Positions 11,314 to 21,286 of a stretch of DNA of 32,000 nucleotides are shown here, piece by piece. Source of the stretch: an uncultured bacterium. GTDB taxonomy: Bacteria; Oederibacteriota; Oederibacteriia; Oederibacteriales; Oederibacteriaceae. How positions within the stretch are numbered: the first letter of the stretch is position 1; every line of letters starts with the position of its first letter. The translations under genes were made by a program, and so were the position numbers. The stretch spans positions 730,258-762,257 of the forward strand of contig OZ218778.1 of assembly GCA_965112635.1 (NCBI GenBank), in the 5' to 3' direction. The notes under the pieces are model-generated. The model was not told the DNA's origin, ran no database searches, and saw nothing but the letters and a program-made list of their open reading frames with translations.

Positions 11314-11628
11314 TCATTCCTCAGTATCCTGGGTCTTGTGCTGGCTGGAAAGATGGATCAAACCTTTAAGCCCGTCAATAATTTCCAGGACTTCTTTTTG
11401 ATACTTTAACCGATACAGCACATACTGCCCCTTGCTTGTAAATCTGACTAGGTCAGCCATCCGCAGGCTCCGCAATTGATGCGAAACTGCGGGCATGGAT
11501 CGTCTGACCTTTTTAGCCAGCTCGGATGGCGCGCAGGGTTCCTTGGCTATGGCCTCCAGGATCTGAAAAGCCACAGGATTTCCCAGCACTTTGCATACTC
11601 TGGAACAACGGAATGAAGTCTCTTGCAT
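11314..11628 (-). CDS. ArsR/SmtB-family winged-helix transcriptional regulator (copy 1)
   Basis: The wHTH pattern is VLGNPVAFQILEAIAKEPCAPSELAKKVRRSMPAVSHQLRSLRMADLV. Start set to ATG 11628, behind SD GGAGAGGAG; the track start at 11643 is a GTG lying inside the SD region. Confidence 0.88.
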   Translation of the reverse strand: MQETSFRCSRVCKVLGNPVAFQILEAIAKEPCAPSELAKKVRRSMPAVSHQLRSLRMADLVRFTSKGQYVLYRLKYQKEVLEIIDGLKGLIHLSSQHKTQDTEE

Positions 11629-11674
11629 ATTTCTCCTCTCCACCGATCTAAATAATGGGGATCCACAAATACGG

Positions 11675-12661: not shown

Positions 12662-12707
12662 AGGCGGGGATCGCTGAACCTTCATTTTTTGCATGTCGCA
12701 GGTCAAG
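12662..12707. repeat. 46-bp repeat, copy 1 (AGGCGGGGATCGCTGAACCTTCATTTTTTGCATGTCGCAGGTCAAG)
   Basis: It differs from 14400..14445 at 3 positions by hand alignment, in the same orientation. Confidence 0.75.
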
Positions 12708-13865: not shown

Positions 13866-14180
13866 TTATTCCTCAGTATCCTGGGTCTTGTGCTGGCTGG
13901 TCAGATGAACCAAACCCTCCAGCCCGTCTATGATCTCCAGAATTTCCTTGGGGTATTTAATCCTGTAAAGAACATATTTATTTTTTGTCGTATATCGAAC
14001 TAAATCTGCCAAACGCAAGCCTTTCAACTGATGTGAAATGGCCGATATGGTTCTTTTGAACCTTTTGCTCAACTCAGATGGGGTGCACGGTTCCTTAGCA
14101 ATAGCCTCAAGAATTTGAAAAGTCAAAGGATTGCCCAATACCCGGCATAGCCTGGAACAACGATATGCTGTTTCTTTCAT
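13866..14180 (-). CDS. ArsR/SmtB-family winged-helix transcriptional regulator (copy 2)
   Basis: The wHTH pattern is VLGNPLTFQILEAIAKEPCTPSELSKRFKRTISAISHQLKGLRLADLV. It is about 72% identical to copy 1 (75/104 by hand count). Start set to ATG 14180, behind GGAGAGGAG. Confidence 0.88.
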   Translation of the reverse strand: MKETAYRCSRLCRVLGNPLTFQILEAIAKEPCTPSELSKRFKRTISAISHQLKGLRLADLVRYTTKNKYVLYRIKYPKEILEIIDGLEGLVHLTSQHKTQDTEE

Positions 14181-14229
14181 ATTTTCTCCTCTCCACACAA
14201 GCCATAAGATACAAACCCCACAATCCCTT

Positions 14230-14399: not shown

Positions 14400-14445
14400 A
14401 GGCGGGGATCACTGAACCTTCAATTTCTGCATGTCGCAGGTCAAG
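14400..14445. repeat. 46-bp repeat, copy 2 (AGGCGGGGATCACTGAACCTTCAATTTCTGCATGTCGCAGGTCAAG)
   Basis: It differs from 12662..12707 at 3 positions. Confidence 0.75.
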
Positions 14446-15540: not shown

Positions 15541-17517
15541 TTATATTATTGCAAAACCAACATCTTTTAAATATTCAAAAGTCGGATCATAATAGTCTCG
15601 CTTACGCGTTTTATCCTCTGTGTCTCCCTGCGGTACTACCATCACCATACCTTGCCGAGCACGGGTTAACAAAACACGATATGCATTTTTCAAATAGTTT
15701 TGCCTTTCTTTCTTTTTAATATGATTCCAGCTCTCACCGCAAAAGGACCAATGCTCCCAACCTTTTTTTGAATATCTAAAATCAGCATCCCAGGCTACAC
15801 ATGACCAATCAAGCTCAAGCCCCTGGACTGCGAATTCAGTCGCAACATCTTCTAAATAATATGACGAGCGCACATCCTCCTTGCCATCAAGAAACCAATG
15901 AATCGGATCCATAGGAGTTTTCACATCTAGAGCATGAGGTTTTAACCGCTCAGCTTGAGAAGAAACCACAATGCCATATCGTTCTGAACCGCGGGCTTGG
16001 CTTCTTAACCATTTCTTTGCTTTAGTAAGATCCCGAGTAAGGACTATCGGATATTTTTCTTTTACATTGGCCAATGTTTTTCGTGCTTCATCAACATTAA
16101 GGTCTAATAGTTGCTTCACAAATAGCGAAACATTCTCCGCACGGAACGAACGCATAGAGACACCTAGATGTAATTCATTTTTGTAGGTAACATTTTCTCT
16201 AAGTTCAATTTTTTTCAAAACCTCACCAGCACCATATTCGCTATCTGTGAGCCGCGAGGAAATATAAATATCCCAATTGGGATATAAATGATTTAATGAT
16301 TCTATCCATTCGCTAATCCCAGCCTCGCCGGTGTTTATTTCCTGCCCTCCCCCCACAAGGCAAACAACAACGGCCCAATCCGTATGGCGATCTAAACAAG
16401 AAATTAAAAAATCCGGTTCCGATCGATTAAAATTAGCTACATGCTTTCTGCGGGTCATAAAATTGGTGGTTTGTTCCCTATTCCAAGCTCGTTGGGCCTC
16501 ATCAAACAATGCAACGTGTTCAATTGGTGGTTTTTTTGAATCAATCAGACATTCATCACGAAAATTATGAACATTCTGGATAAACATCTTAACCCCAGAC
16601 ATAACTTCGCCTTTTTTTACTTTGATCCCTTGCTCTTTCTCATGACGCACTTTATCTCTTGCAAGGGCCTCGCGTAGCACAGCAACAAGAGGCCCATTGC
16701 CAGATAAAAATACACTGTAAAGGTCATTCGATTTATCTATGTGCTGAGTAGCAATATTTAGACCAACCAAAGTTTTACCCGCACCAGGCACACCAGTGAC
16801 GAAACAGATAGATTTGCGCGAATTTTGTTTAGATAAACTAATGATTTTTGAAATAGCATCAGAGGTTTGACTCAGATTGATAGCGCTGGCATCCCTTCGA
16901 GAAATATCATGTACTGAATGGCCGTTATAAAGGGCCATAGCTGCCTCAATAATAGTCGGGGTGGGACAATAGCGTCCTTGTTCCCACTGACTTTGATTAA
17001 TGGCAATACCTTCTGTAAAGAGCAATACATTCTTTATCACTTGGCCAAGCAATGCCACAGTGCTTCTAATAGGAAAAAGAAGTTTGTCATTCTGCGGTGT
17101 CATTGCCACAACAGGAACGGCATGGTGAGCATTGGTAGCTACAAGGACTGGAGCAACAAATTGCTCATGACTCGATTCGTGGAAGTTTTTAAGGTCCAGA
17201 GCATAGTCACAGACCTGATCTAAAGCACCAGAATTAAATTCCTTTTCACCAATTTTAAATTCAAGCACAAAAATCGTAGAGCCTATTAGCAGCACCACAT
17301 CAATTCGCTTGCCCATACGAGGTATTGAATATTCAAAATAAATCGATCCCTGATTACCAATAAGGGCGTTTTGCAGAATATTGATTTCTTCTAACCATGC
17401 ATCACGTTGGCTTTGGACCAAATCAAAATCATTATTGCGTGCAAGTTGACCTAGAATTTCATCAGGATTTGTTTTAAGGAAAATAGCTATTGAACTAGAA
17501 TAATATTCTCGTTTCAT
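15541..17517 (-). CDS. DUF2075-type protein: N-terminal PD-(D/E)xK-like nuclease motif plus an SF1-like P-loop ATPase
   Basis: A 658-aa ORF. The nuclease-like motif is [30 protein letters not shown] (E...D...ExK). Walker A is [14 protein letters not shown] and Walker B is [12 protein letters not shown]. The C-terminal [16 protein letters not shown] is typical of DUF2075. Confidence 0.88.
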
Positions 17518-17545: not shown

Positions 17546-18502
17546 TTACCTTTTAAATCTTTCACTTGAATGCCATTCCAAAAGCTCTTTGTTTGGGCGG
17601 TAATTTTCTTGAACTGGAAGTCTAATCTTCTTGTGATCATAGGAAAAATAATACTCCCCGTTATGAAACTCTTCTCTAAGTTTATTACTAACTCTAATCT
17701 CGTAATCCGGAGTGACTGTGACATATCCCTGGTCAAAGAGAGAATGAAAATCCGAACGTAGACAGAGTCCATTATCAAGCCTATGATCTCCCTCTCTAGC
17801 AACTGGTCGGATATGGGCTGCTTCCAGGACAGGTACTACCTTTTCTGCTGTCATGGCGCATTTTCTATCATATAAATCTAAGATCATGACTCTGAAGGTT
17901 CCTTGTCCCAATCGCATTTTTACTAATCGGGGATCGCCATAAATTTTACCTGTAATCTCATGTATTTCTGGTTGTTTAATATCTATCGTCTCTGCTGCTA
18001 TGAGTTGTTTTTTATTATTAAGAGAACCTTTTATTCTCATCCAAATCTCCCGCATCGGAGAACTCTCTGAATCATACGTCTTGCCCTGTACAATATTTAA
18101 AGAAAAATCCTTAGGAACCGGAATCCAGTCTTTTTGTTCGAGATAAAATAGATCTCCTAAAATAATACATCCTATTGAGTAATCCTCCCTAGGATTTTCA
18201 TTAACTCTGCGGTATTTAGCTAATCGGTGTCTCATATCTTCTAGAGTAGCTACTCCGTTTTTTTCCTCAAATGCATTCCAGGCGATACTGATTGGTAACA
18301 ATGAGGAATGACGAAAAAAACCTCCCCCTACGATAAAATTATTAGGGGCATGAAGTTTAAAAAGAAAGGGTTCCCCAACTTGGAGAGTATGAAATTGCCT
18401 GTTTCCACCCGGTTGCCAAAAATTTACCTCGTCAATGTCTTGGCGTTGGCTAAGAAAATCAAACCAATCTTTATCAGTGATCCCAACATAAATATTCAAC
18501 AT
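17546..18502 (-). CDS. HNH endonuclease (HNH_2 type) with an N-terminal PUA/EVE-like domain; type IV restriction-like
   Basis: A 318-aa ORF. The C-terminal RLGQGTFRVMILDLYDRKCAMTAEKVVPVLEAAHIRPVAREGDHRLDNGLCLRSDFHSLFDQGYVTV is the HNH_2 signature. The N-terminal portion (WFDFLS...VNFWQPGG...GEPFLFKLHAPNNFIVGGGFF) is the conserved partner domain of this family. Confidence 0.9.
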   Translation of the reverse strand: MLNIYVGITDKDWFDFLSQRQDIDEVNFWQPGGNRQFHTLQVGEPFLFKLHAPNNFIVGGGFFRHSSLLPISIAWNAFEEKNGVATLEDMRHRLAKYRRVNENPREDYSIGCIILGDLFYLEQKDWIPVPKDFSLNIVQGKTYDSESSPMREIWMRIKGSLNNKKQLIAAETIDIKQPEIHEITGKIYGDPRLVKMRLGQGTFRVMILDLYDRKCAMTAEKVVPVLEAAHIRPVAREGDHRLDNGLCLRSDFHSLFDQGYVTVTPDYEIRVSNKLREEFHNGEYYFSYDHKKIRLPVQENYRPNKELLEWHSSERFKR

Positions 18503-18532: not shown

Positions 18533-20914
18533 CTATAAAATTGCAATGAATTCGCCCAGAATCTGGATGTCGTTTTCATTCTCGGGTTTGAGTTTTATAG
18601 GTTGATACTGCACATTTAATGGTAAAAGTGTTATTTCTTCGTGCTTCCAAGTCTCATCACTGCTGACAGTCTTTTTCGATGAATATAATTTAACTGTATA
18701 TGACCCGCCTGTGTCAGGGTCTGCCGGGCCGCGATACTGGGCTAAAACTATTTTACCCTGCCGCGAACCCTCTGGGTTGGCTCTGAAAACGCAATAGTCC
18801 CCATCCTTTATCTTCGGCTCCATGGACCTGCCTACCACCTGCGCCACGAACATTCTTTCATTCAACCTCCCCAAGCCCTTTGCCTCTACCCAGCCCTCAG
18901 GCTCGACTGCTTCGCCTTTCCCAAAATATCCGGCAGCCGCCTTAAGGGAATAAACAGGAAGTAAGGTTTTGAAAGCCTCATTCCCCGCTGTTTTCCTGAA
19001 TAAGGGAACAACCTTTTCCTGGACCTGCGCCTGGGATATTTCCATCCGGGACCTGAAGAAATTCTCTGTTTCTTTGTTAGTAAAATACACATAGCAACCC
19101 CGCATAGCTCGTGAAAGCAGGGTTCGATAAATATTCCTGACATAGGTTTCAAAACTTTCTTTTTTCATCTTCAATGTTCGGTCTTCAGTGGCCGAGATAT
19201 CCGCTTTTAAACTGTCCGATGGGGCATCGTAAACCAGGTCATTGCCGATAATTACCCCTATATAATCGAACTCAAATCCCTGGGCCGTATAGATGCATCC
19301 GACCTGCTTAAACCCTTCGGGCTTATACGCCCACTCATACCAGCGCACATATCCCTCTGGGGGCCTGGTGATGTCACCATGTGTTTCCCAGGGCATAGCA
19401 AAATTGCCTATCCTGACATCGTTTACCAGTTGGCCGTTCCCATCCAATTTCTTACTCCAAGGCCAACAATAACCGGCTACGATCCTGGCAGAATTCGGTT
19501 TTTCTTCTTCCCTCTTTTGCAACTCCTTATACATTTCCTGTGGAGTATCAAATATCCTGAATTCAAATTTGTCATCTTTCCTTAATAATCTTTTCTCGGA
19601 CTGGTAACCCAGAACAGATTCCAACCAAAGCAGATAATCATTTGAACCCATGCAACGGAACTGTGTCACTAATTCAACCGTATCAATAGAACACCCCTGT
19701 TTTTCGGCGGTTTCCCTGATCAATTCAGACCCGCCTATTTCCTGGGACCGGACATTTTGCTTATCATCTATAAAAAACACGACGGTTTTGGCGCAACGAA
19801 TGAGTTGGTCTATCTGGGGCATATCGGTCCTGTCCTCGGCCTTAGTGAATTGGAAGTTACTTTTATTGCCTATGCGGTGGGCTTCGTCGATCAATAACAG
19901 ATCCAGCTCGTTCGACTTTATTTTGGAAGGGACAAACCGGTATAAATTAGAAAAAAGGATTTCGCTTTCCGGTCCAACAAGGTTTTTTATGCCCTCAATG
20001 AAAGGTTTTGACTTACAGCCATAAAATACTTTGTATTTGGAATGAGCTGCCTCAGCCAGTAAATTGATAGCGATAAGAGATTTTCCTGTCCCCGGGCCCC
20101 CATGAACAATGATGACCGATTTTGTTTTAGTTTTTTTCGACCGTCTTATTTTGGAAAGAATAAGATTTTTCGCTACCAATTGCTCATTTAAAAGGGAGAA
20201 AACAGCCTTGTTTTGTATAACTGCGCTGACATGGTCCAGTAATTTTTGAGAGGGCTGGATTGGGCTTTGCATAAACCTGTTGAATATTTCAAAACCATTA
20301 CCGGATGCCAGCAAATTCTTTATCTTATCAGCCAGTAATTGGGCATCGTCTTTTGAATAAAGGGGATGGTTTTCGATAATTTTTTTAAATTTGGGGGCGA
20401 ATAAACCCTCCCCCTCCTGTTTTTTATAATTATGGCAATAAGAACAGCTGAAAAGTATAAGGGGAGGTTGCTTTTCGAACTCGCTGACAAAATATTTTAA
20501 AAAATTATGGTAGCCCTCGACCTGTTGGGATGGATGGGCCACTACTTTGCTGCTGCCGCCTGTATAGGTCTCGACAAAATTGCCCTCATCATTTAATGGC
20601 TCAACAGATTGCCATTGTTTCAATTCAATCAGGACAATATTTTCCTGCCTATCAAGACCTTTCCCGAACAACAGGCAATCAATGCGGTTCTGGTTATAGG
20701 GAACCTCATACTCAATGGCTATCTGATTATCTTTTAAACCAGCCAACTCGATCAGGTCACGGACCCTGGGTAGTGAATTTTGCCAGGAATTGACCTCCGC
20801 GAATCCAGGCTGCCTGCCGATCCTCTCCTTAAAAGTTCCGATCATGATGTCTGTAAGATGGTTTTCCCTGACATCCTGGATAAACTTTTCGGTCGTATTC
20901 TGATAGATCAGCAT
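18533..20914 (-). CDS. DUF2075-type nuclease/ATPase fused to a C-terminal LexA-like S24 peptidase domain
   Basis: A 793-aa ORF. The N-terminal nuclease-like motif is IEYEVPYNQNRIDCLLFG...IVLIELKQW. Walker A is VIIVHGGPGTGKSLIA and Walker B is LLLIDEAHRI. DUF2075-type motifs are AGYCWPWS, CIYTAQGFEFDYIGVIIGNDL and YRTLLSRAMRGCYVYF. The C-terminus has LKAAAGYFG (an Ala-Gly bond) followed by VVGRSMEPKIKDGDYCVF...GKIVLAQ...YTVKLY (S24 Ser/Lys dyad). Confidence 0.9.
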   Translation of the reverse strand: MLIYQNTTEKFIQDVRENHLTDIMIGTFKERIGRQPGFAEVNSWQNSLPRVRDLIELAGLKDNQIAIEYEVPYNQNRIDCLLFGKGLDRQENIVLIELKQWQSVEPLNDEGNFVETYTGGSSKVVAHPSQQVEGYHNFLKYFVSEFEKQPPLILFSCSYCHNYKKQEGEGLFAPKFKKIIENHPLYSKDDAQLLADKIKNLLASGNGFEIFNRFMQSPIQPSQKLLDHVSAVIQNKAVFSLLNEQLVAKNLILSKIRRSKKTKTKSVIIVHGGPGTGKSLIAINLLAEAAHSKYKVFYGCKSKPFIEGIKNLVGPESEILFSNLYRFVPSKIKSNELDLLLIDEAHRIGNKSNFQFTKAEDRTDMPQIDQLIRCAKTVVFFIDDKQNVRSQEIGGSELIRETAEKQGCSIDTVELVTQFRCMGSNDYLLWLESVLGYQSEKRLLRKDDKFEFRIFDTPQEMYKELQKREEEKPNSARIVAGYCWPWSKKLDGNGQLVNDVRIGNFAMPWETHGDITRPPEGYVRWYEWAYKPEGFKQVGCIYTAQGFEFDYIGVIIGNDLVYDAPSDSLKADISATEDRTLKMKKESFETYVRNIYRTLLSRAMRGCYVYFTNKETENFFRSRMEISQAQVQEKVVPLFRKTAGNEAFKTLLPVYSLKAAAGYFGKGEAVEPEGWVEAKGLGRLNERMFVAQVVGRSMEPKIKDGDYCVFRANPEGSRQGKIVLAQYRGPADPDTGGSYTVKLYSSKKTVSSDETWKHEEITLLPLNVQYQPIKLKPENENDIQILGEFIAIL

Positions 20915-20923
20915 TAAAGGCCC

Positions 20924-21286
20924 CTAAAGATCGGTATATTTTTTAGCGCTACCTTTGGCGAGTTTGACCGGATACTTGCGGGCGTTTTTCTTGATCTTGT
21001 CATGGGCACAGCGGATGGGGTCAACGCCCAGCATATCGCAAAGTTCCGTGAGATAGACCAATACATCGCCTATCTCATCTTTGACTTTTTTGAGGTCGGC
21101 TTTAGAAAGGTTTTTGCTTTGGTTCTCGGTCAGCCATTGAAAATGCTCCATAAGTTCTGAGGTCTCTACTGCAAGCGCCATAGAAAGGTTTTTAGGTGAA
21201 TGGTACTGTTCCCAATCACGGTCTTTTACAAATTTCTTTAATTTTCTGGAAATTTTTCTTAACCCACCTTGATTTCCCATTTTCAA
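20924..21286 (-). CDS. MazG-like nucleoside triphosphate pyrophosphohydrolase (DCTPP1/YpjD-like all-alpha NTP-PPase)
   Basis: A ~118-120-aa ORF. It has DWEQYHSPKNLSMALAVETSELMEHFQW (an ExxExxE metal site), DEIGDVLVYLTELCDMLGVD (ExxD), and KIKKNARKYP. The track start at 21286 is TTG, directly abutting the upstream stop. An ATG at 21280 with GGAG 9 nt upstream is an alternative. Confidence 0.88.
   Translation of the reverse strand: MKMGNQGGLRKISRKLKKFVKDRDWEQYHSPKNLSMALAVETSELMEHFQWLTENQSKNLSKADLKKVKDEIGDVLVYLTELCDMLGVDPIRCAHDKIKKNARKYPVKLAKGSAKKYTDL

Follow-up and report, generated by a model that had tools for sequence, protein, structure and literature searches.

A LexA-type Peptidase_S24 domain on a DUF2075 nuclease-helicase, and a clade of such domains on restriction and defence enzymes

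A 32,000-nucleotide (nt) stretch of DNA from an uncultured Oederibacteriaceae bacterium (contig OZ218778.1 of assembly GCA_965112635.1, positions 730,258 to 762,257), called the window below, encodes on its minus strand a 793-amino-acid (aa) protein with three parts: from N- to C-terminus, a PD-(D/E)xK-type nuclease, a DUF2075/Schlafen-type superfamily 1 (SF1) helicase ATPase and a Peptidase_S24 domain. Sequence, fold, catalytic dyad and scissile site all assign the C-terminal domain to Peptidase S24. Within that family it falls in a separate, cellular clade, whose domains serve as a portable C-terminal attachment to restriction and defence nuclease-helicases. This would place a known self-cleaving switch in an apparently undescribed role, on enzymes of immunity. 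Tentatively, and at somewhat less than an even chance, we favour the reading that the S24-tailed enzyme carries a self-cleaving off-switch gated by RecA filaments on single-stranded DNA (RecA*), by analogy a cis-encoded form of restriction alleviation.

The fusion protein and its C-terminal domain

The gene and the parts of its product lie in the window as follows.

18533..20914 (-): complete nuclease / DUF2075 helicase / S24 fusion gene, 793 aa (list of open reading frames, Pfam)
18533-18535 (-): stop codon of the fusion gene
20195..20914 (-): N-terminal region, residues 1-240, with PD-(D/E)xK-type motif D79 (20678-20680) and E97-L-K99 (20618-20626)
19079..20122 (-): DUF2075 / Schlafen group-3 SF1 helicase ATPase, residues 265-612 (Pfam PF09848)
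20078-20101 (-): Walker A, GGPGTGKS (G272-K278)
19877-19888 (-): Walker B, DEAH (D343-E344)
18965..19078 (-): linker, residues 613-650, ~38 aa (model confidence, homologue comparison)
18536..18964 (-): LexA/UmuD-type Peptidase_S24 domain including the cleavage-site strand, residues 651-793 (Pfam, profile-to-PDB alignment, AlphaFold2 with Foldseek)
18929..18934 (-): predicted scissile bond Ala661-Gly662 in LLPVYSLKAAA/GYFG (cut at /), aligned to LexA A84-G85
18824..18826 (-): Ser697, predicted nucleophile, in motif GRSMEP, aligned to LexA S119
18689..18691 (-): Lys742, predicted general base, in motif YTVK, aligned to LexA K156

The initial annotation of this DNA had described a 793-aa protein here, and the open reading frame (ORF) of 793 aa at 18533..20914(-) is borne out: a 6.7-kb contig of an independent (Logan) assembly, annotated with a separate gene caller, has the identical product with the same neighbours. 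The codon positions that the initial annotation gave for A661-G662 (18934-18929), S697 (18826-18824) and K742 (18691-18689) are exact. That the S24 domain is truly fused to a DUF2075 nuclease-ATPase is confirmed by the Pfam domains and a 64-sequence family alignment, and the suggested search for further DUF2075-S24 fusions found them in many lineages, so that the fusion is not unique to this contig. An assembly chimera or mis-called ORF, in which a DUF2075 gene had been joined to a repressor gene, is ruled out with near certainty, because the same architecture recurs in many lineages: besides the independent contig, there are 49 homologues of this architecture among the top 120 and 14 further DUF2075-S24 genome loci from several phyla. 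The architecture had been called unusual, which is right in one sense and wrong in another. Searches of full-text literature, a body of text that leaves out most subscription journals, turned up no account of an S24 domain joined to DUF2075, HsdR, DruE or another restriction enzyme, but the architecture is widespread and not rare.

Pfam matched Peptidase_S24 (PF00717) to residues 659-789 with a score of 41.7 bits (E 1e-10), which exceeds the gathering score of 23.3. Single-sequence phmmer searches of PDB sequences, with the C-terminal 173 aa and with the whole protein, gave no matches. When 27 homologues were combined into a profile of their C-terminal 160 residues, PDB sequences of the E. coli LexA C-terminal domain (CTD) matched at E 1.5e-6, UmuD at 1e-5 and lambda cI weakly. 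The hidden Markov model (HMM) alignment placed LKAAA/G on LexA RVAA/G (A84-G85), GRSM on GMSM (S119) and YTVK on VTVK (K156).

The domain was also modelled with AlphaFold2 (predicted local distance difference test, pLDDT, 85.9; predicted TM-score, pTM, 0.81), and the model was compared with known structures in Foldseek. The best match was the LexA CTD 1jhe_A (E 8.8e-7, TM-score 0.80 on the target, root-mean-square deviation 2.7 A), which is a 'cleavable-form' LexA structure. It was followed by the LexA-RecA complexes 8gms/8trg, lambda cI and UmuD'. All of the top 34 matches were LexA, cI or UmuD', and signal peptidases matched only weakly (E>0.05). The structure prediction proposed in the initial annotation has given a LexA CTD fold, the profile alignment sets Ser and Lys at the positions of LexA S119 and K156, and the claim of a LexA/UmuD-type S24 domain with an intact scissile site and Ser/Lys dyad is upheld by Pfam, by the profile-to-PDB alignment and by Foldseek.

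Conservation of the predicted catalytic residues was read from two sets of sequences. The first holds 49 fused DUF2075 homologues (760-830 aa, within the top 120 full-length homologues) and was gathered without reference to S24 motifs. The catalytic Ser and Lys are present in 49/49 each; the residue before the scissile bond (P1) is Ala in 30 and Cys in 19, and at the residue after it (P1') 43 have Gly, 5 Thr and 1 Ser. Ala at P1 is the LexA residue and Cys at P1 is the UmuD residue. In the second set, taken from genome loci, Ser and Lys are invariant (81/81) and P1' is Gly in 78/80. The search patterns for this second set included AAA and GxSM, with Lys and the P1' Gly outside them. The conservation of AAA and GxSM there is partly ascertainment, since both stood in the patterns, and the argument rests on Lys, the P1' Gly and the independent 49 homologues because these are free of the patterns. 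The S24 match, with its fold and residue conservation, is far beyond chance. Five homologues (P0004, P0009, P0010, P0011 and P0019) have AAA-T at the predicted scissile bond and keep Ser and Lys; this subclade may consist of non-cleaving or slow-cleaving variants. LexA G85D is non-cleavable.

The 793-aa protein is not a LexA repressor or orthologue, because it has no DNA-binding domain (Pfam found neither LexA_DNA_bind nor a helix-turn-helix, HTH, in it) and does not reach the NCBIfam LexA/UmuD models, all of which fell below cut-off (UmuD 24 bits, cut-off 110 bits). The S24 domain is canonical in structure, is under purifying selection and has its own scissile strand. Its model and alignment suggest that it is catalytically competent and of the self-cleaving type.

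The partner also seems to be a live enzyme, because its nuclease and ATPase motifs are invariant. D79, E97 and K99 do not vary in the 64-sequence alignment, and the PD-(D/E)xK signature falls on predicted strands. NERD (PF08378) is precomputed for the homologues P0015 and P0028, and residues 3-291 match the N-terminus of PADLOC PDC-S41 at 71.7 bits; we infer a nuclease here from motif and context. The helicase part matches PF09848 (SLFN-g3_helicase, formerly DUF2075) at E 8e-84 over 353/354 model positions, and its Walker A and Walker B motifs are invariant in the same alignment. A model of the full-length protein (pLDDT 82.3, pTM 0.57) was most similar in the PDB to human SLFN11 (E 1.7e-12), then to the SF1B helicases RecD2, RecD, Dda and Dna2. 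The PADLOC Nhi model matched at E 1.8e-12 over residues 240-405 only, and the AbiO match was partial. Because the Nhi, AbiO and PDC-S41 matches are only partial, the fusion protein is assigned, at the level of profile searches, to a separate DUF2075 subfamily outside the Nhi and PDC-S41 HMM families. The linker between helicase and S24 is probably flexible: pLDDT in the full-length model is <50 at residues 627-636, and both length and sequence vary among homologues, with poor conservation.

The S24 domain is an optional module of this DUF2075 subfamily. Of the top 120 full-length homologues, 49 have lengths of 760-830 aa and are 54-65% identical, most with precomputed PF00717 beside PF09848; their sources are metagenome-assembled genomes (MAGs) of Deltaproteobacteria, Planctomycetota, Omnitrophota and other groups. 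S24 is missing from about 70 of the 120, which are ~626 aa long and 65-71% identical over the core, and stop near residue 625. Fused and S24-less members interleave in a neighbour-joining tree of the core domain (drawn with no support values), which suggests repeated gain or loss of the S24 module.

A clade of S24 domains on restriction and defence enzymes

To find further loci, a 6-sequence alignment of S24 was searched against one genome per species, which gave 555 confirmed S24 loci across many phyla. Partner classes were read from the S24-containing ORFs of the best 80 of the 555. By their N-terminal parts these ORFs fall into at least 8 unrelated classes, given here with their Pfam domains.

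type I HsdR-like (HSDR_N + SWI2_SNF2 + T1R_D3): 25 of the best 80 loci
ResIII + RE_endonuc: 20 of the best 80
DUF2075: 14 of the best 80
DEAD + Helicase_C + MZB: 5 of the best 80
other classes in the best 80: ResIII + Helicase_C with HNH_repeat or HIT + PLD; Eco57I / N6_Mtase type IIG; type ISP
XRE-HTH regulators, ~265 aa: a few of the best 80

PADLOC assigned these partner classes to type I restriction endonuclease, type III restriction endonuclease (weakly), type IIG/DrmMI, type IV methyl-directed restriction endonuclease (E 1e-83 to 1e-89) and Druantia DruE (E 2e-103). HsdR-S24 genes stand directly behind hsdM and/or hsdS in the three loci examined.

An exhaustive HMMER search of 1.84 billion representatives (50%-identity clusters) found 576 matches to the S24 clade at E<=1e-30, a number that rises to 1658 at E<=1e-10. 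Nearly all of the top 150 have the S24 domain at the extreme C-terminus. Pfam was run on the 55 top matches of >=400 aa, and the partner domains were solely of restriction or defence type.

DUF2075 16, ResIII 13, Type_ISP_C 8, Eco57I 4, DUF3427 3, DEAD 3, N6_Mtase 3
Methylase_S 2, RE_endonuc 2, MZB 2, GIY-YIG 2
one case each: T1RH-like_C, RE_AlwI, RE_LlaJI, MmeI, McrBC, PLDc_2, MTES_1575

S24 is internal or near the N-terminus in P0271, P0332, P0318 and P0355; P0271 is 1490 aa long, with S24 at 1163-1312. A word-indexed search with S24 alone returned only proteins of <=280 aa, many of them fragments at contig ends, and was uninformative on partners.

Partner classes intermix in the S24 tree, where the nearest neighbour has the same class in only 46/69 cases. 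The S24 domain of the fusion protein itself is closest (65%) to that of a ResIII-RE_endonuc protein. Viral contigs held only one close relative of the domain, itself an HsdR-S24.

Some members of the clade are free-standing. Two S24-only proteins, of 153 and 186 aa, were seen in L088 (7001-7462, a restriction-modification, RM, locus) and in L089 (7001-7561, beside NACHT/NERD/UvrD-PDDEXK genes); a possibility is that they are trans-acting or split versions. Two other small S24 ORFs, in L023 and L004, had been candidates for HTH or stand-alone proteins and were rejected and left out of the counts. They are probably frameshifted or partial paralogues, because they are 94-95% identical to the S24 of a large gene in the same genome and the sequence upstream of them is nonsense-like. 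In L064 (2909-4360 and 1371-2069), a Peptidase_M78 (ImmA/IrrE-like) gene and an RNA ligase gene come before the gene for a DruE-like-S24 protein.

The presence of free-standing S24-only proteins in RM and defence loci is in keeping with a tethered S24 domain that cuts some other protein, such as a repressor or a phage factor, and not its own linker. LexA does cleave in trans, at low efficiency. However, nearly all members carry the scissile strand L-[KE]-A-A-[AC]-G in cis at the LexA-equivalent position, and the neighbourhoods examined hold no conserved gene that is a candidate substrate. A trans-acting protease is therefore very improbable.

What cleavage would do to the enzyme

On the reading of a RecA*-gated off-switch, the effector would be an Nhi-like defence protein, co-operonic with a MazG-like gene, that bears its S24 domain on a poorly conserved linker. 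In an undamaged cell the S24 domain would hold the enzyme in a working state, probably as an S24-mediated dimer. RecA filaments on single-stranded DNA, arising from DNA damage or recombinational repair, would stabilise the cleavable S24 conformation, and Ser697/Lys742 would then cut the Ala661-Gly662 bond in cis. The effector would lose its dimerising domain and end in a new unstructured tail, ...LPVYSLKAAA-COOH, which would serve as a LexA/ssrA-like ClpXP-type degron. In this way the nuclease would be inactivated and removed at a time when unprotected or single-stranded DNA is present in the chromosome. We infer each of these elements: the cleavage, its stimulation by RecA*, S24 dimerisation, use of the degron and the off direction.

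Because the partners, at least 10 unrelated restriction or defence enzymes, have many folds and the linker is not conserved, the S24 domain likely acts generically and not by docking on each active site. A cis-encoded, RecA*-gated off-switch is favoured because it combines the generic consequences of S24 cleavage with the precedent of HsdR proteolysis. LexA-like proteins have embedded ClpXP C-degrons by the cleavage site, and once autocleavage has taken place the N-terminal part is rapidly degraded (PMC5742171, citing Neher 2003 and Niu 2010). In LexA, cI, IrvR and HdiR, which have a C-terminal S24 and a functional N-terminal domain, cleavage inactivates the protein and the exposed degron leads to degradation (PMC5742171). 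All characterised proteins of this layout are cleavage-inactivated, which points, if anything, away from activation. As for HsdR, PMC4231737 and PMC11109961 describe E. coli restriction alleviation as the proteolytic removal of HsdR, in connection with unmodified chromosomal sites after repair or replication.

A possible role of RecA* was judged in part from the residues that would contact it. Six LexA residues form a pocket for RecA F203, namely V79, V82, F111, L113, V146 and V153 (bioRxiv 10.1101/2023.10.30.564768). These positions map to Y655, A659, F689, A691, L724 and Y739 of the fusion protein, all hydrophobic or aromatic, two of them bulkier than in LexA; F689 is invariant and L724 is ~95% conserved. 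The retained pocket positions are hints of RecA* responsiveness. The closest non-enzyme relatives of the domain (S24 57-61% identical) are XRE-HTH-S24 regulators annotated as LexA family, and in one of four loci such a gene is directly upstream of recA (L058, 9689-10447 and 10569-11744). This adjacency is a lead only. The XRE-HTH-S24 regulators of L058, L015 and L022 are orthologous across Bdellovibrionota-like MAGs, and a divergent response-regulator gene lies upstream of the regulator in 3 loci.

Several points weigh against the off-switch. Not all members of the family need cleave, because five homologues have Thr at P1'. In single-chain type ISP and IIG enzymes, degradation would also remove the methyltransferase. 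One DUF2075-S24 locus is in a Methanosarcinales MAG, and Methanosarcinales are expected to have RadA, not RecA. The pocket for RecA F203 may differ, since two positions hold a bulky Tyr and not Val. Unnatural N-terminal bulk hampers the docking of LexA in the RecA groove (bioRxiv 10.1101/2023.10.30.564768), and a partner of 650-1900 aa might hinder it likewise, which a long linker could relieve. The N-terminal fragment left by cleavage is nearly identical to a natural S24-less homologue, presumably an active enzyme, and this fits activation by cleavage equally well. Human SLFN11, which has a DUF2075 helicase domain, is described as responding to DNA damage or replication stress in cells (PMC6765204), as Schlafen-family DUF2075 proteins respond to DNA damage, and this parallel favours activation.

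Activation was the direction proposed in the initial annotation. On this reading, S24 would keep the nuclease-helicase latent, and RecA* on intermediates of phage replication or recombination, or on damaged DNA, would bring about a cleavage that frees the active effector, in an abortive-infection or late-acting defence. We hold this to be doubtful and at the same time a serious, live rival, to which the structural evidence for a competent S24 applies equally. UmuD is an S24 protein activated by cleavage, though the piece removed there is an N-terminal arm and not a functional partner domain. DNA-damage signals also raise other defences, through CapH/CapP-type regulation. Activation is harder to reconcile with the enzymes on which the clade sits, which include type I HsdR (in hsdM/hsdS operons) and type ISP, IIG and IV enzymes: such restriction enzymes rely on modification to tell self DNA from foreign and have no need of being switched on. 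It is difficult to picture how one domain on a non-conserved linker could specifically autoinhibit more than 10 unrelated folds. The persistence of S24-less homologues implies that the unmasked enzyme is not so toxic as to require a zymogen.

A further alternative, which we consider unlikely, dispenses with RecA. The S24 domain would mainly dimerise or tether the enzyme, or would process itself, whether slowly or when prompted by something else: a phage protein, for instance, or pH, or a factor akin to an antirepressor. LexA's C-terminal domain dimerises, as do those of cI and UmuD, and many of the partner nucleases need two catalytic units to cut duplex DNA. The P1' Thr subclade, which retains its S24 domain, the archaeal DUF2075-S24 locus and the chance that a bulky N-terminal partner hinders docking in the RecA groove all speak for such a role, and some LexA-like proteins (IrvR/HdiR) cleave without SOS signals (PMC5742171). 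Against it, Ser, Lys and the scissile Ala/Cys-Gly are near-universal over hundreds of divergent sequences, which implies that cleavage itself is selected. The residues equivalent to the RecA-F203 pocket stay hydrophobic, and the closest regulators are of the LexA family, one of them beside recA.

Taken as a whole, we give an even chance to the broader proposal that the clade is a portable, RecA-filament-sensing proteolytic switch, repeatedly added to the C-termini of type I HsdR, ISP, IIG, III-like and IV enzymes, DruE and Nhi-like DUF2075 proteins, either as an alleviation fuse or as a damage-triggered activator. If this is true, the SOS signal would govern, by a direct and post-translational route, how active or how stable DNA-cutting immune enzymes are, and RecA*-gated autoproteolysis, known from the transcription factors and the polymerase subunit of the LexA/UmuD/cI paradigm, would reach immune enzymes as well. 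How a cell spares its own chromosome from restriction and other DNA-degrading defences during damage, repair and recombination is a long-standing question, with a mechanism mainly from E. coli type I/ClpXP. A LexA-type domain inside the nuclease subunit would offer a simple, general and testable form of self-protection; if cleavage activates, the domain would instead represent a new kind of sensor for infection or damage. The proposal predicts SOS-dependent modulation of Druantia, of type I/ISP/IIG/IV restriction and of Nhi-like systems. For engineering, it would also supply a compact and transferable tag that ties a protein's degradation or activation to DNA damage.

Genomic neighbourhood and known systems

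The fusion gene lies in a low-GC stretch at ~10-22 kb of the window (GC 0.36-0.47, against 0.53-0.62 in the flanks) that carries defence-type genes. The genes around it are in a tight co-directional order: a 195-aa ORF, a MazG-like gene, the fusion gene, an HNH_2 gene, a PDC-S41 DUF2075 gene and a 262-aa ORF.

20924..21286 (-): MazG-like nucleotide pyrophosphohydrolase gene, ending 9 nt before the start of the fusion gene (Pfam PF12643, E 5e-16)
17546..18502 (-): HNH_2 endonuclease gene, 318 aa, 30 nt downstream of the fusion gene (Pfam HNH_2, E 1.7e-10; PADLOC HNH, E 6.5e-25)
15541..17517 (-): second DUF2075 gene, S24-less, 658 aa, full-length PADLOC PDC-S41 (E 7e-287 over 1-656)

A MazG-like gene is directly upstream in 4/4 fused and 2/2 S24-less homologues that were looked up, and upstream in 10/11 further DUF2075-S24 genome loci. 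Because it adjoins both kinds of homologue, the conserved unit is the MazG-like/DUF2075 gene pair, with S24 as an optional extension. The pair looks like an uncharacterised two-gene defence candidate. The archaeal locus, L035 (8027-10441, Methanosarcinales MAG), also has its DUF2075-S24 gene with a MazG-like gene upstream; it could be explained by horizontal transfer, by contamination of the bin or by a RecA-independent trigger.

HNH_2 homologues (41-48% identity) are downstream in 4/11 DUF2075-S24 loci and are thus recurrent, not obligatory. The C-terminal half of the HNH_2 protein resembles restriction endonucleases that act on phosphorothioate DNA (NF045808), though its 76 bits do not reach the cut-off of 180 bits, and its N-terminal ~190 aa have no family match. 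The whole four-gene cluster recurs in an Elusimicrobiota MAG (L033), including a 72%-identical copy of PDC-S41. Other neighbours in homologous loci include SIR2-HerA, MrcB_N, HEPN/MNT and a second DUF2075 gene.

The window has no tRNA or rRNA genes. Two ArsR-type HTH paralogues, at 11314-11643 (-) and 13866-14198 (-), share 72% nt identity over 300 nt and end in identical C-terminal tails. Between them are a possible toxin-antitoxin pair (147-aa and 134-aa ORFs) and a 341-aa ORF. A 46-nt direct repeat (93%) is found at 12662-12707 and 14400-14445.

Among known systems, human SLFN11 shares the DUF2075 helicase domain with the fusion protein, but it is eukaryotic, its N-terminal domain differs and it has no S24. 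The likeness is a conceptual lead and not homology of a sensing mechanism.

LexA, UmuD and lambda cI (MEROPS S24, PF00717) share with the fusion protein the fold, the Ser-Lys dyad and the positions of the Ala(Cys)-Gly scissile bond, and the DUF2075-S24 family holds both Ala-Gly (LexA-like) and Cys-Gly (UmuD-like) variants. Where those proteins have an HTH domain or a short arm at the N-terminus, the partner here is a nuclease-helicase of 650 aa. The linker of ~38 aa is non-conserved, whereas that of LexA is short, and the HMM alignment shows two insertions relative to LexA, before and after the Lys strand. Self-cleavage and RecA dependence, the hallmarks of LexA and UmuD, are in the fusion protein predicted properties.

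Nhi-like anti-phage proteins consist of an N-terminal nuclease and DUF2075 (bioRxiv 10.1101/2022.05.11.491447). The order of nuclease and DUF2075 ATPase in the fusion protein is the same as in Nhi and Nhi-like proteins, and the defence-island neighbourhoods are alike. Against the PDC-S41 model the fusion protein scores 72 bits and the neighbouring true PDC-S41 gene 951 bits. What sets the fusion gene apart from Nhi and PDC-S41 is its near-constant MazG-like partner gene and its C-terminal S24.

With the ClpXP-dependent restriction alleviation of EcoKI HsdR, the predicted switch would share only a functional analogy, the proteolytic control of a nuclease-helicase subunit at times when the host's chromosome is vulnerable (PMC4231737, PMC11109961). 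In the E. coli system the protease acts in trans and recognises translocating complexes; in the S24-tailed enzymes the predicted cut would be intramolecular and gated by the RecA filament.

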